Shown in pieces: positions 30,525 through 59,462 of a stretch of 59,720 nt of DNA. Positions within the stretch are counted from its first letter, which is position 1. The number at the start of each line of letters is the position of its first letter. The stretch spans positions 1 through 59,720 of IMG/VR virus record IMGVR_UViG_3300020234_000033; one strand, 5' to 3'. The DNA is from a virus. Its lineage: Duplodnaviria; Caudoviricetes. The notes below the pieces were generated by a model. It was not told the origin of the DNA. It was given only the letters and a program-made list of their open reading frames with translations, and searched no databases. A program made the translations under genes and the position numbers.

Positions 30525-30784
30525 TGGCCCAGGAATTCAATGCGTTCTCAGTCGCCACAAAAGGCTATGCGTGCGGTCTCGGTACGACCGGGTTCTTTGC
30601 CTTCGCAATCGCATCGAAGGGTTATATATGCGATGCTGAAGAAGTAGCAGTCCGTGGTGGTGACAGCTCTAAGGGTAAGTGGGCGAAGAAGCAGCTCGAC
30701 ACATCGCTGGCAACCATGCTGGCCCGGGAAGATGAAGAGGCGCTGTCCATCATCATCGCGATCAGTAGAAAGAGGCGACATTAA
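30524..30784 (+). CDS. Hypothetical protein
   Basis: TAATG coupling on both sides. Confidence 0.6.
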   Translation: MAQEFNAFSVATKGYACGLGTTGFFAFAIASKGYICDAEEVAVRGGDSSKGKWAKKQLDTSLATMLAREDEEALSIIIAISRKRRH

Positions 30785-33700
30785 TGGCAACATTGGCATC
30801 ATGTATTCGAAAAGCTGGTAAGGCATTGAACGCCGGGGACGCCGCAACGATCCGCGAGATCTATGATGACCTACGCACGGAAGGTGGTCTTGCTCCAGAA
30901 GCAGCAGCTGATCAGGCTATCGGTGAGTACTTGGATACCCTGACAGCAGAACGGGCGGACATCACCGCTCAGGTGCGTGCACAGGGCGGTACGATGCCCG
31001 GGGACCAGACGGTCCGCTTTGCACCAGATAGTGGTATCGTCAAACGCACGGCCAAGAAGCTCAATATGCGTCGGATCCTGAGTGGACAAGAGAAGCTCGA
31101 CATCACACCAACCACCGAGAGTGGCATCCCAATCATGCGTGATGTGGCACTTGCACTGCAGGAACGTGCCAAGGCCATCAACCCCGACCTCGAAGAGCAG
31201 ACCGACGAGGCCAAGGATATCATAGCCACCACGATGGCCGATGAAGTAGAGGCTGCGATGGCTGAGACCGGACACGCCGGACACTGGTACAGCGACAAGC
31301 TGCGCAACGCCGTGGCCCTGGTAGCGGAGATCCACCCAGATCTCAAGGATCCTAACTCCCAGGCCATGTTCCTGGCAGCACTGGCGATCACTTCCAACGG
31401 CCAGCCGGTGTCTAAGAATGCGGAGATGGCTGAGGCACAGTATCAAGAGTACAAGCGCACCGGCAAATTCCCCGAGATTGGCTCAGGTAAAGAAAAGCAG
31501 GCCATGGTCAACGGGTTCAGAATGTTGAATGAGCTGCTCGATAAGAAAGGTCTCGATGCTACCCGGAAATTCCTGGCCACCGAGTACACTAAACGCGAGC
31601 TGATGGATCTCGGCTACGGCAATATCCTGTCCGGTGAGGGCACTGAGTTCGGTACTCACGGTAGTGGAATCTTTGGCCCCAAGATAGGCGCAGGCTTCTA
31701 TCAGAACCTGATCGGCAACTTCAATCCACTCACTACAGACCGCTGGTTCATGCGCACCTGGGGGCGGATGGTTGGCAAGCTGATGCAGGATCCTTATTCC
31801 GACGCCAACAATAACCGCAGAGACAGGCTGCGTAAGGCTTTGTCCACTAAGAAAGGACAAGAAAAGTTGGCTGAATTAGGCTATAATAAGTTAAGTATGG
31901 CCAACGATACGACGCTGGCAGATATTGCGACCTATCTCCACATGCAATACATACAAACCAACTATGAAAACAAGGTGGAGTGGAATCAAGCGGCGAGAAA
32001 TTTGGACAAGGGTCTCAACGAGACCATCGGTCAACCGTCAGGAGCAGGACACAGATCATGGATCAGAGAAGTAGTAGCGGAGGCCAGATCGATACTGGCT
32101 TCACGAGGTACGGAAGTAGACACAGCGACGTTACAGGCGCTGGTCTGGTTTCCGGAGAAAGCACTTTACACATTTCACGGAGTAGGTGATGCCAAAGCAA
32201 CCCCAACAGATTATGAGCAAGAGTTCGCTCGAATCGCTGAAGAACGAGGTGTTGATTCAGCCACAATTCGAGGGATCCTACGAACAGAGACCGGACGACG
32301 ACCAAGAGGAGTCTCTGGACCCGGGGAGCCTGAAGGATTCGACGCTCTTCGACAACCTATTGAACCGAGTAAACGAAAACTCGAACTTGTTCAGTCCGGA
32401 GTCGCAGCGATCCGGCGGACCGGTAGAAGCACTTACCGATCAGCAGTTCCAAAAAGGGCTGGATCTCTATTAGACGGCGCTGTTATATCAGTAATATTCA
32501 AGCCCCAGGCTTTTGCTAAAAACCAATGGGAGCGGGTAGGCCTATCCGCTCCCACCATCAATCAACTCGATACTGCCGCTGACGGAGCCATCCCCAGCGC
32601 GCAGGCTTTCACGCGTGCCATCACTGCAGCCAAAGAAGCACACCCAGATGGTGCAGCAGTCTATGTCTACCCACAGGAAGAATACGAAGGTGCTCGTCTG
32701 TACCTGACCGAAGACGGCATGGCTGGCTTCGCCCTGAAAGGCGGGGACATTGTATCGGTCTTCAAGCATCCGGATCTCAAGGCCCCGGGTGTCGTGCAAT
32801 CGTTGATCTCACTGGCCGTGCAGGAAGGTGGCCGCAAGCTCGATGCGTTCGACACCATGCTGCCTCACTTCTATGAGATGCAGGGATTCAAGGTCGTGTC
32901 TCGGATACGGTGGGATGAAAATGAGATGCCGCTCGGGTGGGATAAGGAGCGCTTCGCTGACTTCAACAACGGCGAGCCCGACGTGGTCTTCATGGCGTGG
33001 GATCCGGGGAACTACAACCAGTACACCGGCGAGGGTGTGATGGCAGAGAGCTATGAGGGAGCCGTCGCTCGACAGGATGCTGCGGTCGTTGAAGACATGT
33101 ATCCTGACCTGGGACCGATGCGACTGCGCATCGAGGACGACGCTGAAGAGCAGTTCGTCGATAAGCACCCGGAGCATCCGCACTCGCAGCTGTTCAAGAT
33201 GGCTGTGACTATGGAGGATCAAGCCAACAACGCACCGAGCATTGTCCAGATAATTAAGGACAAGATTACGAACGCAGGTGACACTGCCATCGAGGCCAAC
33301 CTCGCGTTGATCCACCGCAACTACCTCGAAGACTTTATGCCGGATGCACGGATGAGTGCTATCCGGGAATACAATCATGACATCCGCGAGATGGAAGGTC
33401 GCAAGGGTGAGCTGGTACAGAAGTATCAGCCGACCGCGCAGAAGATGTTCTGGCATAAAACTAGAAACAGGAAAGAGCATGCCCGCCTTGGTGAGGCAAT
33501 GCACGCTGCCACCATCAACGGGATAGATCCCAGTGAGGAATACAAGGCACTGAAGAAGCGCGAGAACATGACCGAGGCGGATAAGAAAGCCGACACCCTG
33601 CGTCGTGCTGAGTACAAGATCCTGAAGGATTACTACGACACCCAGCTCACCCAGGATTCACGAGATCTGTTCGTCGAGGTGCGCGATCAGTACAGTGATC

Positions 33701-35955
33701 TGCGTAATAATATGGAGACTGCGATCATGCAGCGCATCGAGGACGCCGTGGCTAGCGACATGGCCAAGCGGGCGTTGCGGTTGGAGATGCGCAAAATGTT
33801 CGAGTCTGGCCGGGTGCAGGGTCCGTACTTCCCACTTGATCGCTGGGGTGACCAGTGGGGTGCAGCCTATAACGAAGAAGGCGAGATCTATTCGTACAGT
33901 AAATTCGATACCAAGTCCGAGCGGGTCGCGTGGCGCGAGGCCATGGAAGAGGCCGGATTCACTGTCAAGGACGGCAAGAAAATCACATCTGATATGGGCC
34001 AGCTGCAGGCACTGGACCCTGAACTGGTAGCGCGCCTTCAGAAACTGACCTCCGGGTTACCCGAGAGCGATTCCATCGCTGACGAGATCTATCAGATGTA
34101 CCTGCGCTCACTACCCGAGATGTCGATGCGCAAGCACTTCATCCATCGTAAGGGTCGCATCGGATTCAGCGAGAACATCCTGCGGTCCTACGCTGGCCAG
34201 ACATTCCATGGCGCTACCCAGATCGCACGCATGGAGCAGCAGCCAAAGCTCGAACGTGACATGGTCAAACTCAGAGAGCAGGCCCAGGCTGCAGAGGCGA
34301 TGCGTGACGAGCACTCCGACTGGGCCGTGCCGATACTCAATGAGATGGACAAGCGTCATGGGCTGGCCATGAACCCACCGAAGTCAGTGGTCGCGAGTAA
34401 GCTGACCAACCTGGGCTTTGCGTGGATGCTCGGTGTGACCCCGGGCGCGGCCATACTGAACCTGTTCCAGACACCCATGTTCGCGATGCCGACAATTGCT
34501 GCCCGTAAAGGGAATGGAGCCGTGAAGACCACGGCTTATTTCTTGAAAGGAATCGCCGAGTATTTCAGTACCCGGATCGGTGGCTACAAATCTAAGCTGC
34601 GTGATGACGAGCTGGCCGCTTACGTCTGGGCTGAGAAGACCAATATCCTGACCAATACCATGTCACATGATCTGGCGGATCTGATTGAGAAGGATGACAC
34701 CGCGTACGGCCTGCGTCGTAACATCATGACCGTGGTCTCGTACCTGTTCCACCACACTGAGCAGGCTAACCGCAGTGTAACTTTTATGGTCGCTTACCGG
34801 CTCGCGCGTGATCGAGGACTCAGTCACAGCGAAGCGCAGTACGATGCCGCGGATCTCAATGACCGCAGCCATTACGATTACTCGACCAGCAACCGCCCAC
34901 CGATCATGCAGAAAGAAGCGGCCAAGATCGTGCTGTTGTTCAAGAACTACGGCGTGCACTCCACCTACCAGATGGCTCGCGCACTGAAGGATGGATACTT
35001 TGCCCAGAAAGATCTGCCCATCGAACATCGCAGGGAGGCCCGCCGCAAGCTCACCGGGATCCTGATGATGACCGGTTTACTGGGCGGCGTATCCTCGCTG
35101 CCATTTGCATGGGTGGTCGAGACCATACTGAATGCAGTCTGGGGTGACGACGACGAACCGATGGACGCGGGCGCAGAGTTCCGGGTGTACATGATCGAGC
35201 AGGGCTTCAGCTCGGAGCAGGTCGAGGCACTGCTAACCGGTGGCTGGGATGCAATGACCGGTACCACCATGTCGAGCAGGATCTCACTGTCATACCTTGG
35301 CCTGGGACGTGAGTCCATGTACCCGCTGGAGGGCAAGGACGCAGCACTACACTTCTTCGAGGAAATGATTGGCCCGGTGGGCTCCATACTGGTGACGTCG
35401 CCGCTACAGGGTCTGCAGGATGTCAGCGAGGGTCGTTACGAGCGGGCCATCGAGCGGGTCATACCCAAATTCATGCGAGATCCAATGAAGGCGGTCCGCT
35501 ATGCCACCGAGGGTGCACTGACCTACGCCGGTGAGCCGATACTCACACCCGAGCAGTTCACCAATAAGGATCTGTTCGTGCAGTCAATCGGACTGGCGCC
35601 GTCTCGACTGACACAGCGCTACGAGCAGAACCGTGCGTTCAGGAATAGAGAGCAGAAGTTACTGGATCGATACAAGCAAATCACCAACCAGTACTGGATG
35701 GCCCTCGAACTGGGGGATCCAGCTGCACGTAAGGAAGCCTTGAAGGCTATGCACAAGTGGTCCCTGGCCAACCCACAGCTTCCGATCAACGCTGAAATGC
35801 TTGAGCGATCCTCTCGGTCCCGGGCGCGCATGAGTCAACAGGTCTACGGCGGCATCGCCCTCGACCCACGATTAGACTTCCAGATCCGGAAGGATCTGAC
35901 TTACCTCCCGGTCGAAACCGGTGAGCCATTCCCCAGACCTGCAGGTGTTAAATAA
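30784..35955 (+). CDS. Large polyvalent internal virion protein (PLxRFG-like, with GNAT-like and possible glycosylase-like domains)
   Basis: GPYFPLDRWG (PLxRFG-type motif); DIVSVF...KLDAFDTMLPHFYEMQGF (GNAT-like); GPKIG.GF..NL.GN...LTTDRWF.RTW; helical C-terminal region. Confidence 0.7.
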   Translation: MATLASCIRKAGKALNAGDAATIREIYDDLRTEGGLAPEAAADQAIGEYLDTLTAERADITAQVRAQGGTMPGDQTVRFAPDSGIVKRTAKKLNMRRILSGQEKLDITPTTESGIPIMRDVALALQERAKAINPDLEEQTDEAKDIIATTMADEVEAAMAETGHAGHWYSDKLRNAVALVAEIHPDLKDPNSQAMFLAALAITSNGQPVSKNAEMAEAQYQEYKRTGKFPEIGSGKEKQAMVNGFRMLNELLDKKGLDATRKFLATEYTKRELMDLGYGNILSGEGTEFGTHGSGIFGPKIGAGFYQNLIGNFNPLTTDRWFMRTWGRMVGKLMQDPYSDANNNRRDRLRKALSTKKGQEKLAELGYNKLSMANDTTLADIATYLHMQYIQTNYENKVEWNQAARNLDKGLNETIGQPSGAGHRSWIREVVAEARSILASRGTEVDTATLQALVWFPEKALYTFHGVGDAKATPTDYEQEFARIAEERGVDSATIRGILRTETGRRPRGVSGPGEPEGFDALRQPIEPSKRKLELVQSGVAAIRRTGRSTYRSAVPKRAGSLLDGAVISVIFKPQAFAKNQWERVGLSAPTINQLDTAADGAIPSAQAFTRAITAAKEAHPDGAAVYVYPQEEYEGARLYLTEDGMAGFALKGGDIVSVFKHPDLKAPGVVQSLISLAVQEGGRKLDAFDTMLPHFYEMQGFKVVSRIRWDENEMPLGWDKERFADFNNGEPDVVFMAWDPGNYNQYTGEGVMAESYEGAVARQDAAVVEDMYPDLGPMRLRIEDDAEEQFVDKHPEHPHSQLFKMAVTMEDQANNAPSIVQIIKDKITNAGDTAIEANLALIHRNYLEDFMPDARMSAIREYNHDIREMEGRKGELVQKYQPTAQKMFWHKTRNRKEHARLGEAMHAATINGIDPSEEYKALKKRENMTEADKKADTLRRAEYKILKDYYDTQLTQDSRDLFVEVRDQYSDLRNNMETAIMQRIEDAVASDMAKRALRLEMRKMFESGRVQGPYFPLDRWGDQWGAAYNEEGEIYSYSKFDTKSERVAWREAMEEAGFTVKDGKKITSDMGQLQALDPELVARLQKLTSGLPESDSIADEIYQMYLRSLPEMSMRKHFIHRKGRIGFSENILRSYAGQTFHGATQIARMEQQPKLERDMVKLREQAQAAEAMRDEHSDWAVPILNEMDKRHGLAMNPPKSVVASKLTNLGFAWMLGVTPGAAILNLFQTPMFAMPTIAARKGNGAVKTTAYFLKGIAEYFSTRIGGYKSKLRDDELAAYVWAEKTNILTNTMSHDLADLIEKDDTAYGLRRNIMTVVSYLFHHTEQANRSVTFMVAYRLARDRGLSHSEAQYDAADLNDRSHYDYSTSNRPPIMQKEAAKIVLLFKNYGVHSTYQMARALKDGYFAQKDLPIEHRREARRKLTGILMMTGLLGGVSSLPFAWVVETILNAVWGDDDEPMDAGAEFRVYMIEQGFSSEQVEALLTGGWDAMTGTTMSSRISLSYLGLGRESMYPLEGKDAALHFFEEMIGPVGSILVTSPLQGLQDVSEGRYERAIERVIPKFMRDPMKAVRYATEGALTYAGEPILTPEQFTNKDLFVQSIGLAPSRLTQRYEQNRAFRNREQKLLDRYKQITNQYWMALELGDPAARKEALKAMHKWSLANPQLPINAEMLERSSRSRARMSQQVYGGIALDPRLDFQIRKDLTYLPVETGEPFPRPAGVK

Positions 35956-48707: not shown

Positions 48708-48822
48708 TTTCAATCTCCTTGCGTTGCGTTAGTTGCGTTAAAAAATTACTACACCTAAAGTATAGCTCATCTCCATATAAAGTGGTACCATATTTTGCCA
48801 ATAAATCAGAGGATCCACACCG

Positions 48823-53266: not shown

Positions 53267-53293
53267 AAAAAAGCCCCGACCGGAGCCGGGGCT
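53267..53293 (-). terminator. Rho-independent terminator of the leftward early operon
   Basis: Minus strand: AGCCCCGGC-TCCG-GTCGGGGCT followed by TTTTT. Confidence 0.85.
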
Positions 53294-53329
53294 GATTCAT
53301 CGGCGGGTCACGCCAGAGTGTGAACGTCT

Positions 53330-53620
53330 TTAGCAGACGTCTACATCCACACCATCCTCCTTGGTGATGCGGCCATTCCATCCGAATGACGCGAACCTTG
53401 TGACGCAGTTAGCGGCCACCGAATAGTTGTCATGCAGGTTCACACGGACCGTGCGAGGCACCTTGAGGTAATCGAGTTCTTCATCATTGCTCGCACCTAC
53501 TCGTGGGCGTTCCATGCTGGACACGTCTTCGACGTTGACCGGGCAGCACTGTGAGTACCGCAACATGTCGAGAGGGAAATCTCCCTTACCGGTTACTGTG
53601 ATTTCGTAATGTGATTTCAT
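53330..53620 (-). CDS. Hypothetical protein
   Basis: V.G.G.FPLDMLRY..C.P...RF.SFGW motif; AGGAG SD. Confidence 0.7.
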   Translation of the reverse strand: MKSHYEITVTGKGDFPLDMLRYSQCCPVNVEDVSSMERPRVGASNDEELDYLKVPRTVRVNLHDNYSVAANCVTRFASFGWNGRITKEDGVDVDVC

Positions 53621-54183
53621 GCGTAATCTCCTGCGTTAACTTCAGTGAATGTATAGCCAAAATCGGCCAGTTTCTTTTCGACCAAGATCCGGGTCTGGTC
53701 CAGCGACTTATTCCAGTACGCATTGGTGCGTGTAGATCCAGTCAGTCGTGTGGCCAGAGTCAGGCGGAACTCAGAGGCGATGCCACGTCCTGATTTCTTT
53801 ACCGGGTACACTGGCACGTCGGTCTTGTATTCCGGATCCAGCGAGGCGTTGAGATCCCGGGTGCGAAGCCCGATGTAGAAGTCTGCAGCAGCCTGGGCCT
53901 GTTGCGCCATGGAGACGCCGTCCCCCAGGTTGCGACGCCCGGTGAAAGATCCCCAGTTCATGTCCTTGCGTGTGGGCCTCATCGTGCGCTTCTTGTCGCG
54001 GCGTACGATACGGAAGGTCAAGAGCTTAGGGTCAGCCAGCAGGGTATCGCCCTTGCCGTCGTGCAGTGCACGGATGCACTCGTTGTGCTGGTCCCGGGAT
54101 CCATCGGAGTAGGCGTAGGTACGGATGTACTCTTTGCCGTTCCAGATCTCAAGACGGTAGTCATTGTGATTAGATTCACTCAT
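53617..54183 (-). CDS. Hypothetical early protein
   Basis: GGAG SD; coupled to its neighbours. Confidence 0.65.
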   Translation of the reverse strand: MSESNHNDYRLEIWNGKEYIRTYAYSDGSRDQHNECIRALHDGKGDTLLADPKLLTFRIVRRDKKRTMRPTRKDMNWGSFTGRRNLGDGVSMAQQAQAAADFYIGLRTRDLNASLDPEYKTDVPVYPVKKSGRGIASEFRLTLATRLTGSTRTNAYWNKSLDQTRILVEKKLADFGYTFTEVNAGDYA

Positions 54184-54185
54184 AA

Positions 54186-54620
54186 TTATTTCTCCATTGC
54201 GTTGAGGATATCGATGGCGTCGCGGATATGACCACGGGCGTCATCGAGTTCAGGTGCTGCATCTTCAGGTACCACCATACCGTCGTGCCAGTCTACGATC
54301 TCCAGACCCATGGCTTCTTCAGCGTCGCCCTGCGCGTCTTGGATCAACTCGCAGGCTATGGACTCCAGTGCCTCCAGTTCAGCCAGTAGCTGCTGTTCCC
54401 GGGTCGGCGTGACCATGGGCTGTTCACGTGTCACGATTCCAACTTTAGCCATGGCATCGACGACGTGCGCCAGTGTCGAGCCCTCTTCATCACGTCCGGC
54501 GATGATGGTGCCGGAGTTGTCGAGGGTGCGACCGATGGCGCTGTAGTTGGTGGGCAGGTACGGCGCGACTGCTCGCGACGCACGCCCATCTTCAGCGATT
54601 GCTATTCTGATGGGTTTCAT
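54186..54620 (-). CDS. Hypothetical early protein
   Basis: TAATG coupling; YLP.NY...IAGRD..G.TL motif. Confidence 0.65.
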   Translation of the reverse strand: MKPIRIAIAEDGRASRAVAPYLPTNYSAIGRTLDNSGTIIAGRDEEGSTLAHVVDAMAKVGIVTREQPMVTPTREQQLLAELEALESIACELIQDAQGDAEEAMGLEIVDWHDGMVVPEDAAPELDDARGHIRDAIDILNAMEK

Positions 54621-54898
54621 TATTTATCTCCGAATTGTTCAACGGCATCGCGATGTTCAAACTTGAATATACGCACTCGTCTGACGGTGTCGTAAGGTAC
54701 GACTACGGCGCCACCTTGGTGGACCATTATCTTCACCCATACACCGTTCTTCTGGTCTTCAGTTGGCTGGATGCTTTGGCAGTTGAACCAGTCAGCGGTG
54801 ATGCTGTCGCGGTCTTCGAACCCATAGATCCGGCCCTTGTGGCCGTGGTTGTTTGACACGACGTAATCGCCTATTTTGTAGATTCTAAATGTACTCAT
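54620..54898 (-). CDS. Hypothetical SH3/HspQ-like small protein
   Basis: YKIGDYV...HGHKGRIY...W pattern; AAGGAG SD downstream of a ribozyme. Confidence 0.6.
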   Translation of the reverse strand: MSTFRIYKIGDYVVSNNHGHKGRIYGFEDRDSITADWFNCQSIQPTEDQKNGVWVKIMVHQGGAVVVPYDTVRRVRIFKFEHRDAVEQFGDK

Positions 54899-54918
54899 TT
54901 TCAATCTCCTTGCGTTGT

Positions 54919-54990
54919 AGATCCTGTCTCATCAGTGCCGGTAGGATCTGGATCCGGCAGACGCACCCAGTCACCCGGGTGCGTTTCGAC
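54919..54990 (-). ncRNA. Type II hammerhead ribozyme with pseudoknot (HHR1)
   Basis: GUC GAAA C GCACCC-GGGUGACU-GGGUGC GUC/ UGCCGG-AUCCAGAUCCUA-CCGGCA CUGAUGA GAC AGGAUCU; predicted cut 54960|54959. Confidence 0.92.
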
Positions 54991-55242
54991 TCAGCCTGCC
55001 AGTGCCCTCCTTGCGGATTTGGTGATGCCGAAACTCAGGCCACATTTCCTGAGCTTTTTCCGTGCACGTTTCACCGGGTATTCGACCACGTCGAATCGAG
55101 CGGTCGATAATTCGACCTTCTCGATTCTCATGCCTGAGCTATCCGGCCAGATCACTGACAGCCACTTGGGCCCGACAGTGACGACCAGTCCGGTGCGGAT
55201 GCCATCGTCAAGATGGATCCGGATGACGGTGTCCTTATCCAC
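54991..55242 (-). CDS. Hypothetical early protein
   Basis: Stop directly abuts HHR1. Confidence 0.6.
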   Translation of the reverse strand: MDKDTVIRIHLDDGIRTGLVVTVGPKWLSVIWPDSSGMRIEKVELSTARFDVVEYPVKRARKKLRKCGLSFGITKSARRALAG

Positions 55243-55705
55243 GTTTCACCAACCATGCTTGGACGTTGGCAATTGCGGCCCGGGTGACGTCGGACATGTT
55301 GGCCCGTTCAGCCTGATCACTTTCGTAAAAGCAATCGAGGTTGGCTTCGCCGTGTTCCGCGAAGTCCGCCCACATGTCAGCACGATGCCCAGCCATTTCG
55401 ATGACGTATGACAGATCGGTCGCGAGCGTCGGGTCATCTTCCTTGACCCGGTCGAGGGAGCGCTGGCGATTCTGCTGTTTGCCGATCACGTACTTGGCCC
55501 GGTTCATCAGTTGACGAGCAGCATTGATCTGGGGAACCCAGCCCGGATTGTCAGGCTGGTCCAGTAGTTCCTGAGCGTCGCTGAGCATGCCCATCGATAA
55601 CATGGATAGGTTATCCACCTGTCGATTGATCAAGCTCATCAGGGAGCACTCAGACATGCCCATGGCCTGTTTGAACCACGCTTCCTTTTCTTCGACGGTT
55701 CTCAC
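55235..55705 (-). CDS. Hypothetical early protein
   Basis: GTGA coupling; GAGG SD. Confidence 0.6.
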   Translation of the reverse strand: MRTVEEKEAWFKQAMGMSECSLMSLINRQVDNLSMLSMGMLSDAQELLDQPDNPGWVPQINAARQLMNRAKYVIGKQQNRQRSLDRVKEDDPTLATDLSYVIEMAGHRADMWADFAEHGEANLDCFYESDQAERANMSDVTRAAIANVQAWLVKRG

Positions 55706-55998
55706 GCTGCCACCTCACCAGTGCGAGCGGTCACACGTATGCTGGTCACGACACTGTGACTGGTGTGAGCGGAGACCAGTTGACGACTGGGCTTGAGTAC
55801 GGCGCTGATGGCCTTCCAGTCTATGTTGGTCCGGTTGGCATCGACCACGTTGGCCCGGAACAGATCGCCCTCAGCCACGGTGACGTCTGCCGCCAGCAGG
55901 TCTGCCTTGAGGTCAGCCTCATCTATTTTGAGGATGGCCATCTCGGCACGGATCTGGCCTAAATCATCGACCAGTTGTTTCAGTTTCTTCGCGTTCAT
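55702..55998 (-). CDS. Hypothetical early protein (coiled coil plus beta region)
   Basis: MNAKKLKQLVDDLG.I.A...; AAGGAG SD. The upstream extension in the ORF track runs through the ribozyme and is unlikely to be coding. Confidence 0.7.
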   Translation of the reverse strand: MNAKKLKQLVDDLGQIRAEMAILKIDEADLKADLLAADVTVAEGDLFRANVVDANRTNIDWKAISAVLKPSRQLVSAHTSHSVVTSIRVTARTGEVAA

Positions 55999-56020
55999 TT
56001 GCGTTAACTCCTTGCGTTGT

Positions 56021-56085
56021 AGATCCTGTCTCATCAGTGCCGGTAGGATCTGGATCCGGCAGACCGGGCATCGCCCGGTTTCGAC
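56021..56085 (-). ncRNA. Type II hammerhead ribozyme with pseudoknot (HHR2)
   Basis: GUC GAAA C CGGGC-GAU-GCCCG GUC/ UGCCGG-AUCCAGAUCCUA-CCGGCA CUGAUGA GAC AGGAUCU; predicted cut 56062|56061. Confidence 0.92.
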
Positions 56086-56086
56086 T

Positions 56087-56296
56087 TTAGCTTTCGTTGC
56101 GAACCCAGATGTTGATGTCGTGAACTTTGGATCCATCTGTCAGGGTCTCTTCGACCAGTTCGATGCCGAGGCCGTCGATGTCTTTGCCGTCGATCTTGAG
56201 GTAGTTGACGCCGCTGGTCTTGAACTGGTTCAGAGCCTTGATCAGGTCTTCGACGGTGTTACCAATATGATCTTGGATCAGTGATTGTTTACTCAT
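56087..56296 (-). CDS. Hypothetical early protein (69 aa) flanked by two ribozymes
   Basis: AAGGAG SD; EETLTDGSKV..I motif. Confidence 0.7.
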   Translation of the reverse strand: MSKQSLIQDHIGNTVEDLIKALNQFKTSGVNYLKIDGKDIDGLGIELVEETLTDGSKVHDINIWVRNES

Positions 56297-56317
56297 GTTT
56301 CTAATCTCCTTGCGTTT

Positions 56318-56383
56318 GATCCTGTCTTCATCAGACCGGGTAGGATCGGATTCCCGATGACCGGGCTTGCGCCCGGTTTCGAC
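56318..56383 (-). ncRNA. Type II hammerhead ribozyme, core-insertion variant (HHR3)
   Basis: GUC GAAA C CGGGC-GCAA-GCCCG GUC/ AUCGGG-AAUCCGAUCCUA-CCCGGU CUGAUGA A GAC AGGAUC; predicted cut 56359|56358. Confidence 0.88.
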
Positions 56384-56384
56384 T

Positions 56385-57365
56385 CTATGCGCAGGCCCTC
56401 CGATCTGCTGCGTTGCCGCCGTTGGCTTTCAATTCGTCGGCACGTCGCAGGCACCAGTCCCGGTCAGCGATGAATGTGCCTGTCTCGCGATCCACGATGC
56501 CGTTCTCCCGGGCCCAGTGGTTCCAAGCAAAGGATCTACCCAGTCCGACAGTGATGCCCGTGGTGGGCCACTGAGTGGCTGGCTTGGCTACGAACTCTTC
56601 CCAGTCCTTGCCGTAGGTGCAGTCGTCTGAACCCCAGCGGCTGTGCTTGCCCACCATCGCGGCGTGCTCCATGGCGAGGGATTTCATGAACAGATCCGGG
56701 TGCGCCCCGGCCAGCCAAAACAGTTCCCATTTCTGGGAGGCTGGGCAGAAGAAGCAGGCCGACTTGATTGGCACGGGCAGGCCCTCTTCGACGATGCGCT
56801 TGATGCAGTCTTCGCGCTCCCAGTTCAGATCCTGAAGTGGGTACGAGTACAGGAAGTCGTCGTCTTCGCGCTTCACCTTTTTGGCTCTGCGGATGTCCGC
56901 TTTGCCGCTGTCGTAGCCGATCAGTTTCACCAGCTTGCGACCCTGGCCCAGAGCATTGGTCCACAGTGGATGTGGGTCGCAGGCATTGGGTCCAGACTTG
57001 CAACCCTTGACCACGTAATCCTGCGGTACCTGTTTCCATTTGATCGAGCAGGACTTCATGCCGAAGGCCAGACTGGGCAGTGTCTCATTGTGTGAGCAGT
57101 TGCCACCGAGCGAGCCGTAAGGCGTGGTGTCGAGCGTGATCTTTTTACACCATGTGACCGTGGGGAAACCTTGGCGCAGTAGCCAGTCATCCATCAGGCG
57201 GACGGTGTCGTAGGTCTCTGGCTTTTCAGCGCCGGTGTCAGCGAACGTGATCAGGTCCGGGCGGATCCCGGCATCACGCAGCGCGATCAGCATCGCAGTG
57301 CTATCGACACCGCCGCCGTAGCAGACTACAACTCCGGCGTTCTCAGGTAGTTGGATCTGGCTCAT
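56385..57365 (-). CDS. PAPS-reductase-like / adenine nucleotide alpha-hydrolase (PP-loop) protein
   Basis: YGGGVDS PP-loop, FADTGAE.PETY, CSIKWK, YPL...W.REDC, and KSACFFCP Fe-S motif. Confidence 0.85.
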   Translation of the reverse strand: MSQIQLPENAGVVVCYGGGVDSTAMLIALRDAGIRPDLITFADTGAEKPETYDTVRLMDDWLLRQGFPTVTWCKKITLDTTPYGSLGGNCSHNETLPSLAFGMKSCSIKWKQVPQDYVVKGCKSGPNACDPHPLWTNALGQGRKLVKLIGYDSGKADIRRAKKVKREDDDFLYSYPLQDLNWEREDCIKRIVEEGLPVPIKSACFFCPASQKWELFWLAGAHPDLFMKSLAMEHAAMVGKHSRWGSDDCTYGKDWEEFVAKPATQWPTTGITVGLGRSFAWNHWARENGIVDRETGTFIADRDWCLRRADELKANGGNAADRRACA

Positions 57366-57484
57366 GATTTCGCCTCGTGGTTCTGGGCCTGCTTGGCAGC
57401 GTACTTGCTGACTGGCTTTTGCTGGCAGTACTTGAACTTGCGAGCGTTGGCTTCGGCTGTTCTATTTCGTTTGCTATCTTTCAT
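57362..57484 (-). CDS. Small basic protein (40 aa), not in the ORF track
   Basis: MKDSKRNRTAEANARKFKYCQQKPVSKYAAKQAQNHEAKS; AAGGAG SD after HHR4; ATGA coupling to the next gene. Confidence 0.6.
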   Translation of the reverse strand: MKDSKRNRTAEANARKFKYCQQKPVSKYAAKQAQNHEAKS

Positions 57485-57504
57485 GCGTTTAACTCCTTGC
57501 GTTT

Positions 57505-57568
57505 GATCCTGTCTCATCAGTGCCGGTAGGATCGAATCCGGCAGACCCGGGCAAGCCCGGGTTTCGAC
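57505..57568 (-). ncRNA. Type II hammerhead ribozyme with pseudoknot (HHR4)
   Basis: GUC GAAA C CCGGG-CUUG-CCCGG GUC/ UGCCGG-AUUCGAUCCUA-CCGGCA CUGAUGA GAC AGGAUC; predicted cut 57544|57543. The first G is shared with the upstream UAG stop. Confidence 0.92.
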
Positions 57569-58371
57569 TAGGCGATGCGCTCGGCCAGGGTCTTGCCGTT
57601 GAACATCGTGGTGCGGACCTCGATCTCCAGATCGATGTAGCGCTTGAGCAGGTCCGGGTTGGCCCGGGCAGCGTGCCTGAGGTCACCAGTGCTGCCGAAG
57701 ATGCAGAACATGCATGACAGGCGGTCGTTGCCACCAGCGTACGCTGAGTGAGGCGTCTGGCCAGCGGCAGCGATGGTGTTCCAGACGTCATCGATTGACC
57801 AGTGCGCGATGGGCCACCAGTCGTAGGCGATCCGCGACTTGATGGTGTTCTTCTTGTTGCGGTTGAGCGTGCCACGCTGGTCGATCTTGGACTGGCGTGC
57901 CGGTGACTCATCACCCCGGATGCCGACGCAGTTGACCACGATCTTGGCGTGGACGTTTGCAGCGTGCTGGCGGATGACTTTCCAGATGGGCCCAGTCTTC
58001 AGATCGCTGGTGCAAAAGCGTGCGGCTGAAGATGGGAAGGCCGGTGCGTCCGGGCGGTTGGTCGCGTCGAGTGTGGCACGGCGCTGGCGTATCGCACTGA
58101 AGAGATCCTTGGGGGATCCATCAGCGTGAATGGCACGTGCGATCATCAGCTTGCGTCCCGGGCCGATTGTGTCGTGGATGTGTTCTTTCACTCCCGGCCA
58201 TTCGATGTCACCCAGATCAGCGTGGACCACATGCAGTTGATCGAAGGGCACGCTGCGTGCCAGTACTGTGTACATGGCCTGCGAGTCCTTGCCGCCAGAG
58301 TGGCCCACGTAGAAGTGAGCACCCTTGGCGATCAGTTGCGCGATGTCGCGGTAGTTGGCTAATGGATTCAT
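57568..58371 (-). CDS. PAPS reductase family (CysH/DndC-like) protein
   Basis: HSGGKDS PP-loop, HADLG.IEW, RFCTSDLK..PI, GIRGDES.AR, PI..W...DVW and RLSCMFC motifs. Confidence 0.88.
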   Translation of the reverse strand: MNPLANYRDIAQLIAKGAHFYVGHSGGKDSQAMYTVLARSVPFDQLHVVHADLGDIEWPGVKEHIHDTIGPGRKLMIARAIHADGSPKDLFSAIRQRRATLDATNRPDAPAFPSSAARFCTSDLKTGPIWKVIRQHAANVHAKIVVNCVGIRGDESPARQSKIDQRGTLNRNKKNTIKSRIAYDWWPIAHWSIDDVWNTIAAAGQTPHSAYAGGNDRLSCMFCIFGSTGDLRHAARANPDLLKRYIDLEIEVRTTMFNGKTLAERIA

Positions 58372-58934
58372 GATTGGTCAGCCAGTTCAGCGCGAAGGTT
58401 CTTCACTTCCTGATCGTAGATGCGGCAGTGGGCCATGACCTTGTCGGTCAGGTAGGTGATCGCATGCTCCTGCGCGTCTTCGATGTCGACACCCTTGGGT
58501 GCGTAGTACTCGATGCTGTAGTTCTCATCGGCGGGTGCGTTCACCTGACAGGTCCAGACGTAGGCACCAGCCTCGCCTCGCTTGTGGCTGTTCTTCACGA
58601 TGTCTTTGTAGTCGCGGCGGAATGAGTTGACCAGCTTCTCGATGGCCTCGTCCCGGGTGTCGGCGGTTGCCCATCCGAAGGCACAGCTTGCGAAGAAGTG
58701 GACCGGGTCAGGTGTGGGCGTGGTGGTGTCAACGTCGTCGTCATCAGCGTACACGACTGGGTCAGGTGACTCGTCGGTCTCGCGGTTGGTGATGACCAGA
58801 TTGGAGTAGCCCTGATCTGCCCAGCTTACCTTCTCGGCCTGCAGTTCGAACTGGCAGTCACCCTTGCTGAAGCTGCCGAACAGTAGCTCGGTCTCGCCTT
58901 CGATGGTGCCGTGGATCTCGTGGTATGTATTCAT
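58368..58934 (-). CDS. Hypothetical protein, first gene of the early operon
   Basis: AGGA SD; directly downstream of the sigma70 promoter. Confidence 0.65.
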   Translation of the reverse strand: MNTYHEIHGTIEGETELLFGSFSKGDCQFELQAEKVSWADQGYSNLVITNRETDESPDPVVYADDDDVDTTTPTPDPVHFFASCAFGWATADTRDEAIEKLVNSFRRDYKDIVKNSHKRGEAGAYVWTCQVNAPADENYSIEYYAPKGVDIEDAQEHAITYLTDKVMAHCRIYDQEVKNLRAELADQS

Positions 58935-58984
58935 GTTTCAGTTCCTATGTTTGGCCTCGCCTGAGTGGCTAAGCTCTGTCCCAG

Positions 58985-59013
58985 AGCTTAGTTGCAGAAT
59001 GGCACAAAGTCAA
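58985..59013 (-). promoter_or_regulatory. Sigma70-type promoter for the early operon
   Basis: Minus strand TTGACT-17 nt-TAAGCT. Confidence 0.7.
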
Positions 59014-59209: not shown

Positions 59210-59341
59210 CCTCGGATACCCGGGGGCCTCGCCACCCACCACCTCGGATACCCGGGGCCAGCAGGCCCGGGGGTCCGAGGGGGTGGGGGGTGCTGTCTTG
59301 ATACCCGGGTAGTCCGCTGGCCAGAGCAGCGGATACCCGGG
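59210..59341. repeat. GATACCCGGG direct repeats x4 in a GC-rich non-coding region
   Basis: Copies at 59215, 59247, 59300 and 59332; the first two extend to CCTCGGATACCCGGGG. Confidence 0.75.
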
Positions 59342-59462
59342 CCCGGGGGCCGGGGAATCCGAATCGATTCGGCCCAATAGAGTCTCATACATTCTGGGAT
59401 CGGGAAAGCGAGCCGCGGCACCAAGGACCGAGCCATCGGTCCCATGACGTCTCTTCAGATTT

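Follow-up and report, generated by a model that had tools for sequence, protein, structure and literature searches.

Thousands of hammerhead, twister and related ribozymes lie near phage genes, and what purpose they serve there is a long-standing question. The question is raised in compact form by one viral record of IMG/VR (IMGVR_UViG_3300020234_000033; completeness estimate 94%), whose 59,720 bases are hereafter called the window. In this record four type II hammerheads, HH1 to HH4, stand between co-oriented genes of the viral contig over 2.65 kb of the minus strand, and each of them is wedged between the stop codon of one gene and the Shine-Dalgarno (SD) leader of the next. The source is an uncultivated, tailed phage of ~60 kb from marine-sediment and subsurface metagenomes. 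It is rather likely that these elements are functional self-cleaving hammerheads that split one transcript into five RNAs, equal to five translationally coupled gene blocks, with host-independent insulation of the blocks as the most probable purpose. The arrangement as such has been known since 2011 and its purpose is unproven; added here are a quantified stop-ribozyme-SD-start design rule and a set of natural comparators.

The initial annotation of this DNA had placed four type II hammerheads on the minus strand, and this was borne out by matches to RF02276 (Hammerhead_II), by intact cores and by a core-plus-tail motif found four times in the window and not once in 100 shuffles. The search with Rfam type II models that had been suggested as a check gave all four matches, but only HH1 and HH4 reach the gathering score of 37 bits; HH2 and HH3 fall just under it, with scores taken from a permissive search of 7.7 kb. 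A model built from the four copies themselves retrieves exactly those four in the window, HH2 at 89.5 bits. A permissive scan (E<=5) of the 59.7-kb window found no other ribozyme class, and one weak ctRNA match besides. Judged by CUGANGA, GAAA, a pair A15.1-U16.1 and H17 at the cleavage position, the core is intact in all four copies: each has CUGAUGA, GAAA, GUC at the cleavage site and an A..U pair that closes stem III. HH2 carries one additional A between CUGAUGA and stem II. By a structural descriptor, stems II, III and I measure 3, 7-10 and 6 bp in every copy, stem II being the open one and the other two capped by loops, and stem II (GUC/GAC) is common to all four.

The proposed loop I/3'-tail pseudoknot is likewise present in each copy, where AGGAUC(U) of the tail can pair without mismatch over 6-7 bp with GAUCCU of loop I. 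The individual copies differ in small measure: HH1 has stems of 3, 7 and 6 bp and a pseudoknot of 6 bp, the pseudoknot of HH3 is 7 bp long, and stem III of HH4 extends to 10 bp. Cleavage positions after GUC, read again from the sequence, came out the same as in the initial annotation (Table 1), and the lengths of 1185, 297 and 1102 nt that it gave for the RNAs between predicted cuts follow by arithmetic. The ribozymes begin 0-2 nt from the upstream stop codon in four of four cases (TAG 57570-57568, TAG 56387-56385, TAA 56089-56087 and TGA 54993-54991), the G of the first TAG being the first base of stem II. The leader AACGCAAGGAG comes after the ribozyme tail each time, so the claimed abutment to the stop and the ribosome-binding site (RBS) beyond the ribozyme both hold.

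Conservation of the fold was followed in the subfamily that shares the GUC/GAC stem II, drawn from an IMG/VR scan of at least 120 loci plus the window and comprising at least 217 descriptor copies, 202 of them unique; the loci were chosen by pattern, related phages are included, and subfamily counts are descriptive. MAFFT alignments A1 and A2 misalign stem III of HH1 and HH4, and the structure was given by hand for model R1. Covariation was measured on the model-fitted alignment A3 of 150 subfamily copies, in which fitting favours the structure, though the margin is large. In these 150 copies standard pairs fill 96.1% of cells, as compared with 30-44% when the partners are slid by 1-3 columns; changes on both sides occur in 19 of 22 pairs, and values as high did not arise in any of 500 shuffles. 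Where it can be aligned, the helix of the pseudoknot is 81.7% paired. Among the listed loci, from which all further subfamily counts are taken, 161 of 217 copies show complementarity of at least 4 nt between loop I and tail, through 73 different sequences.

Compensatory changes were also found at closer range, in two relatives of the window. Phage R consists of contigs L153 and L156, which overlap by 1262 nt at 99.8% and were found by a metagenome scan with a 29-mer of HH1, HH3 and HH4; phage S is L163, taken from a 58.9-kb contig. Between window and phage R, at hammerheads with matching gene flanks whose proteins are 60-87% identical, the double changes GCCGG/CCGGC to GCCAG/CTGGC and CCGGGC/GCCCGG to CCGGAC/GTCCGG preserve the stems, and in phage S the pseudoknot is retained with a different sequence. 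Judged from these alignments, covariation is strong and the hammerhead structure is under selection. That the elements might be inert in vivo, being misfolded, outcompeted by ribosomes or untranscribed, is accordingly hard to credit: the low Rfam scores of HH2 and HH3 speak for it, as does a predicted minimum-energy fold that differs from the hammerhead in HH2 alone, but the four intact cores, the compensatory changes and the family-wide covariation speak against it, and so do related type II copies that cleave in vivo. Clustered hammerheads of A. tumefaciens are reported to do so in E. coli, and in vivo cleavage is reported for a triple arrangement as well (Perreault et al. 2011, PMC3088659); three type II copies near phage-like genes of D. 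vulgaris were found by cyPhyRNA-seq to do the same (PMC8782182).

The positions of the ribozymes follow the architecture of the operon. Twelve co-oriented open reading frames (ORFs) on the minus strand, g1 to g12, span 58934 to 53330 and run convergent with the primase gene; they are predicted to form an accessory operon with a transcript of ~5.7 kb. At all seven ribozyme-free junctions (g1/g2, g3/g4, g6/g7, g7/g8, g9/g10, g10/g11 and g11/g12) the genes either overlap or leave a gap of no more than 2 nt, whereas the four that carry a ribozyme are 83-92 nt long and are the sole true intergenic gaps of the operon. Because of this difference the ribozymes are read from the gene layout as the bounds of five translationally coupled blocks, g1-g2, g3-g4, g5, g6-g8 and g9-g12. 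The view that all of this is a single unit from promoter to terminator was upheld as to the operon layout and the terminator, which was detected by a scan; it was less well served by the promoter, whose -10 element fits the consensus at only 3 of 6 positions and which the consensus scan did not list. Phage R is 95% identical over the 190 nt that precede g1, both hexamers being invariant and three substitutions falling in the spacer, and a promoter at this site is plausible. The inverted repeat that overlaps its -10 element may serve as an operator or fold into a hairpin at the 5' end of the mRNA. An early timing of expression is suggested by gene content and position only.

Hammerhead cleavage after C17 leaves a 2',3'-cyclic phosphate and a 5'-OH, and RNA ends of this kind should resist 3' exonucleases, polyadenylation and the 5'-monophosphate-dependent entry of RNase E and RNase J. 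A related task is carried out in phage T7, whose early polycistronic RNA is cut between genes by RNase III, leaving hairpin 3' ends. In the phage studied here, each ribozyme would fold after transcription through the open 3-bp stem II, the hairpin stems III and I and the pseudoknot of 6-7 bp, and the folded ribozymes would cut after GUC, converting the ~5.7-kb transcript into five RNAs that match the five blocks. Upstream of each cut, the RNA would run 25-33 nt beyond its stop codon and close with the stem III hairpin, a 1-nt overhang and a 2',3'-cyclic phosphate; its last 46 nt have a predicted folding energy of -14.5 to -20.9 kcal/mol. Downstream, the RNA would open with a 5'-OH and the stem I/pseudoknot fold, ahead of the same strong leader, whose SD is predicted to be accessible. 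Each block would thus have standard ends whatever its neighbours, with its own translation and its own decay rate. Cleavage in vivo at this locus, and an effect of it on stability or expression, are presumed. The T7 sites are a functional analogue and not a family member, as they are cut by a host protein enzyme to give 5'-P/3'-OH ends, whereas the window hammerheads are predicted to cut themselves and to leave 5'-OH/2',3'-cyclic phosphate ends.

Support for such a course comes from studied systems. By mutagenesis, fast cleavage is reported to depend on the pseudoknot of loop I and tail, which most type II members are said to have (PMC3088659). RiboJ insulators are described as cleaving in vivo to 84-94%, the uncleaved mRNA decaying faster in that paper's model (PMC7536230); RiboJ resembles the phage module in that a hammerhead just before an RBS strips off the upstream context and normalises the 5' untranslated region. 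It differs in being an engineered derivative of a hammerhead with an added 23-nt hairpin, the phage module being a natural, pseudoknotted type II element that is fused to the stop codon before it. Unmasking of the SD by cleavage was considered as a separate mechanism and rejected as unlikely, for predicted accessibility shifts inconsistently from uncut to cut RNA (0.78 to 0.83, 0.81 to 0.65, 0.36 to 0.77 and 0.55 to 0.56).

Cleaved RNAs need not stay apart. The ends left by a hammerhead, 5'-OH and 2',3'-cyclic phosphate, are the chemistry that RtcB requires, and stem II is identical in the four copies, which would let the 5' half of any copy pair with the 3' half of any other. Both points have been counted in favour of a cut-and-rejoin process in which the three RNAs excised between the predicted cuts are closed into circles or spliced, either through the hammerhead's reverse reaction or through a host ligase of the RtcB type. 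Such rejoining is very improbable, and exonuclease-resistant circular mRNAs as its product are no less so: a stem II of 3 bp is a weak splint, family searches of the phage gave no match to RtcB (PF01139) or RNA ligase (PF09414), and spliced or circular products of clustered hammerheads were sought and, according to the account in Perreault et al. 2011 (PMC3088659), none was detected.

The fusion of stop, ribozyme and SD is not peculiar to the window. Two or more copies occur on 53 of 117 locus-strands, with arrays of 7 (L035, L057 and L102) and a maximum of 9 (L058), and the window fits this clustered arrangement, in which at least two same-strand hammerheads flank single genes or short blocks in phage DNA. 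In 126 of 217 copies an ORF of at least 50 codons stops on or just ahead of stem II: its stop codon ends on the first stem II base in 73 of them, and at a distance of 1 nt in 27 and of 2 nt in 26; 16 of the 217 have no such stop nearby. TAG stands at the start of stem II in 86 cases, and 72 of these are in-frame stops of a long ORF. On the other side, a start codon is found 15-34 nt past stem II in 165 of 211 copies and an SD in 168 of 211, and 6 copies have no start. The order stop, hammerhead, SD and start is therefore very typical in IMG/VR. A conserved A 5' of stem II, seen across L033-L152, may partly reflect stop codons.

With the stop codon touching stem II, which then lies under the ribosome footprint, a terminating ribosome might open stem II together with the GAAA core strand and some of stem III, and the rate of cleavage would then track ribosome traffic on the upstream gene. 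The frequency of stops on or within 2 nt of the first stem II base agrees with such gating, and so does the proportion of in-frame TAG, since a T kept for ribozyme structure alone would predict about one third. Gating of cleavage by translation is nonetheless unlikely: genome compaction accounts equally well for the tight spacing, and cleavage is irreversible and fast compared with ribosome spacing, which would make any gating weak.

The leader on the downstream side was traced beyond the operon. A fifth exact AACGCAAGGAG lies at 48715-48725 on the minus strand, before an ORF and without a ribozyme; it is followed by ATTGAAAATG, as after HH4, and an AT-rich promoter-like stretch lies upstream. 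Hammerheads of phage S are also trailed by AACGCAAGGAG. As no ribozyme accompanies the copy at 48715-48725, the leader is read as a phage-wide strong RBS module that is not ribozyme-specific.

Comparison with the relatives bears on a further question, whether the modules serve the transcript or the genome. Protein identities between the window and phage R are 71% for g1 (67% between window and phage S), 77% for g2, 83% for g5, 80% for g6, 60% for g7, 87% for g8 and 86% for g9. With hammerheads written as HH, the order is g1-g2/HH/g3-g4/HH/g5/HH/g6-g7-g8/HH/g9-g12 in the window, and g1-x1/HH/x2-g2-x3/HH/g6-g7-g8/HH/g5/HH/g9... in phage R, which has four hammerheads as well. The g5 and g6-g8 blocks are thus swapped, g3-g4 is absent from the stretch of phage R, and a hammerhead separates g1 from g2; homologues of g6-g8 stay together, and all breakpoints between window and R fall at hammerheads. 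Phage S has the order g1/HH/g2../HH/g6-g11../HH, with a stem II of 4 bp. A hammerhead stands directly before g6 in all four hammerhead-bearing phages (window, R, S and L123).

The modules themselves seem to have moved. One that resembles HH1 is 98.75% identical over 80 nt between window and phage R, at non-equivalent junctions, the genes flanking it being 77-80% identical in DNA, and within the window an exact direct repeat of 57 nt (54906..54962 and 56008-56064), holding the 3' half of the ribozyme and the leader, joins HH4 and HH3. These two observations together suggest module exchange or conversion. Among the runs listed as carrying the locus, none is recorded as RNA. Logan contigs from four DNA runs are nearly identical to the window, show no informative variation in the ribozymes and break at the 57-nt repeat of HH3 and HH4, an assembly effect. 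One 816-nt contig of run X6, from an independent metagenome (a single contig of depth 5.6, one side of it being 38 nt), links 54991 back to 54211 through 19 other letters, which sets a hammerhead start right after a variant end of g10; this join gives only a hint, whether of a variant strain, of a tandem duplication or of a g9-g10 block in circular form.

From these rearrangements a reading can be drawn in which the modules matter for genome evolution: context-independent ends and an RBS make blocks portable, modularity is what is selected, cleavage still occurs, and the repeated modules of 60-90 nt may supply homology for recombination. This is a possible explanation, to be held tentatively. 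It would account for permuted blocks with a hammerhead at every boundary, for near-identical modules at non-equivalent junctions and for variable flanking genes, and the differing block orders of window, R and S, the HH1-like module and the 57-nt repeat all agree with it. So does the turnover of neighbours, for among junction pairs from different contigs with one homologous flank both flanks are shared in just 73 of 314, and genes flanking the arrays are seldom common to different phages. Against it stands the breakpoint count: of 1301 homology-block ends, 104 lie within 60 nt of a hammerhead, where 39.1 would be expected at random and 88.8 at ordinary gene boundaries, so that no clear excess results (P ~0.055, the ends being non-independent). 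Metagenome contigs could also be mis-joined at repeats, a concern tempered by exact repeats of at most ~31 nt between the hammerheads of phage R, as read from the sequence, and by phage S, which independently sets the g2 block beside the g6 block.

Hammerheads as special hotspots of recombination were not supported, as they exceed ordinary gene-boundary mosaicism by no significant margin. On the compared contigs, shuffling at hammerheads is real in this phage group, with no general excess shown over phage mosaicism. A little more doubtful than portability as such is the idea that the stop-hammerhead-SD module is a natural plug-and-play insulator selected for portability, in which the fusion to the stop may couple cutting to termination.

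Other relatives carry homologous genes without any ribozyme. Six IMG/VR contigs (L027-L032) have homologues of g4 at 66-78% identity, some also of g2, with short or overlapping junctions; g8 recurs in L159-L161, and g2 in L160 and L161, at 62-67% identity, and these contigs have plain junctions and a repeated leader of their own. Neither in L027-L032 nor in L159-L162 was a hammerhead found by descriptor and junction reading. In L027-L032 there was no Rfam hammerhead match either, but the permissive Rfam search recovered only 3 of 8 descriptor-positive copies in L153, L156 and L163 and is unreliable as a negative, so that absence is based on the descriptor and the junctions instead. The leader of the hammerhead-free relatives, ...CATAACGGAGAAAATTATG, was seen between homologous genes at 2950-3000 of L159 and at 1610-1645 and 2420-2445 of L160; by its placement it is the ribozyme-free counterpart of the same modular junction.

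Processing into insulated blocks has therefore to be weighed with several points that speak against it. Since L027-L032 and L159-L162 do without them, the ribozymes are, as far as these contigs tell, dispensable for homologous genes. HH2 and HH3 score under the Rfam cut-off, and HH2 has its extra nucleotide beside the core. Cleavage, in the folding predictions, does not appear to unmask the SD, and the benefit in stability or insulation is drawn by analogy from other systems.

Processing of long phage transcripts by ribozymes is a known hypothesis, correctly applied by the initial annotation to a new phage; it is not new because it appears already in Perreault et al. 2011 (PMC3088659), where clustered prophage hammerheads of types I, II and III are described as flanking genes and long phage transcripts are proposed to be processed. 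Those clusters, as described there, share with the window the type II topology, the loop I/tail pseudoknot, several copies that flank genes or short blocks, variable flanks and the proposed processing to gene- or operon-length mRNAs. The window differs from them in its new phage, in blocks that equal coupled units, in the quantified stop/SD fusion and in its permuted and ribozyme-free relatives. The main text of that paper contains neither "stop codon" nor "Shine-Dalgarno", although its supplements may show such context. A 2019 review, in its passages on the subject, repeats the processing idea as unproven and calls the function elusive. The hammerheads of D. vulgaris, as reported in PMC8782182, belong to the same Rfam family and have a phage-like context with two copies close together; they come from a cultured bacterium, in a study that captured 2',3'-cyclic phosphate and 5'-OH ends and left function aside, whereas the window phage is uncultivated. 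The mobile PeSL cassettes that T4-type phages carry (Arbiol et al. 2010, PMC2839356) are, by their description, similar as short repeated regulatory modules among non-essential genes of variable regions, at which the gene order of relatives differs. They consist of promoter-plus-terminator DNA with shown recombination and mini-circles, whereas the phage module is a ribozyme plus RBS for which the control showed no breakpoint excess over ordinary gene boundaries, and a scan of the window found no promoter-like or terminator-like site in any of the four modules, unlike the PeSL composition.

Table 1. Features of the ribozyme-punctuated operon in the order of the predicted transcript
Feature	Coordinates	Strand	Remarks
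Promoter-like site TTGACT-N17-TAAGCT	58985..59013	-	Upstream of g1; single match in window
Inverted repeat, perfect 9 bp, TAAGCTCTG-gga-CAGAGCTTA	58970..58990		Overlaps putative -10; invariant in phage R
g1, 188 aa	58368..58934	-	Block 1; no Pfam/PHROG match
g2, 267 aa, PAPS-reductase-like (PP-loop)	57568..58371	-	Block 1; 4-nt overlap with g1
HH1, type II hammerhead	57503..57569	-	RF02276 38.7 bits; predicted cut between 57544 and 57543
g3, 40 aa, basic peptide	57362..57484	-	Block 2; ORF with SD leader; no family match
g4, 326 aa, second PAPS-reductase-like protein	56385..57365	-	Block 2; 4-nt overlap with g3
HH2, type II hammerhead	56316..56384	-	RF02276 33.2 bits, E 8e-4; predicted cut between 56359 and 56358
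g5, 69 aa	56087..56296	-	Block 3, lone gene
HH3, type II hammerhead	56020..56086	-	RF02276 34.3 bits, E 4e-4; predicted cut between 56062 and 56061
g6	55702-55998	-	Block 4 (54991..55998)
g7	55235-55705	-	Block 4; 4-nt overlap with g6
g8	54991-55242	-	Block 4; 8-nt overlap with g7
HH4, type II hammerhead	54918..54991	-	RF02276 38.7 bits; predicted cut between 54960 and 54959
g9	54620-54898	-	Block 5 (53330..54898)
g10	54186-54620	-	Block 5; 1-nt overlap with g9
g11	53617-54183	-	Block 5; 2-nt gap to g10
g12	53330-53620	-	Block 5; 4-nt overlap with g11
Intrinsic-terminator-like hairpin, 9 bp (7 G-C), then T run	53272..53293	-	Terminator scan

Within the operon a family was assigned only to g2 and g4, both PAPS-reductase-like (PF01507, phrog_424); g2 matches PF01507 at E 8e-8 and phrog_424 at E 1.5e-40, and g4 matches phrog_424 at E 2.2e-25. 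The two PP-loop genes lie in neighbouring ribozyme-bounded blocks, and the pair recurs ribozyme-free in L028-L031; its role is perhaps in nucleotide or DNA modification. A literature search found no paper joining a hammerhead ribozyme and a PAPS reductase, and a megablast comparison of the operon with 50,697 phage records gave no match. Elsewhere the window encodes a terminase, a tail-spike-like protein, a DarB-like protein, a helicase, a DNA polymerase, an exonuclease and a primase. The DarB-like antirestriction match (phrog_10089, E 2e-146) is to a protein of 1723 aa at 30784-35955 on the plus strand. A T7-like RNA polymerase (PF00940) gave no match in a search whose control was silent in every genome. 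Upstream of the operon lies a stretch of ~780 nt without a convincing ORF, partly kept in phage R (77% overall and 95% nearest g1), and the 16-nt repeat CCTCGGATACCCGGGG occurs upstream of the operon at 59210-59225 (100%), 59242-59257 (100%) and 59327-59342 (81%); these repeats could be protein-binding sites, or mark an origin or terminal region.

For the larger question of what ribozymes near phage genes are for, this locus is a clean test bed, with four near-identical modules in one operon whose blocks equal units of translational coupling. Nature has supplied the comparators, namely two relatives with permuted, punctuated blocks and several with homologous genes on plain RBS leaders. The rule that a ribozyme sits at the stop codon and the next start lies 15-34 nt past stem II may aid the annotation of phage operons and the design of compact synthetic insulators.

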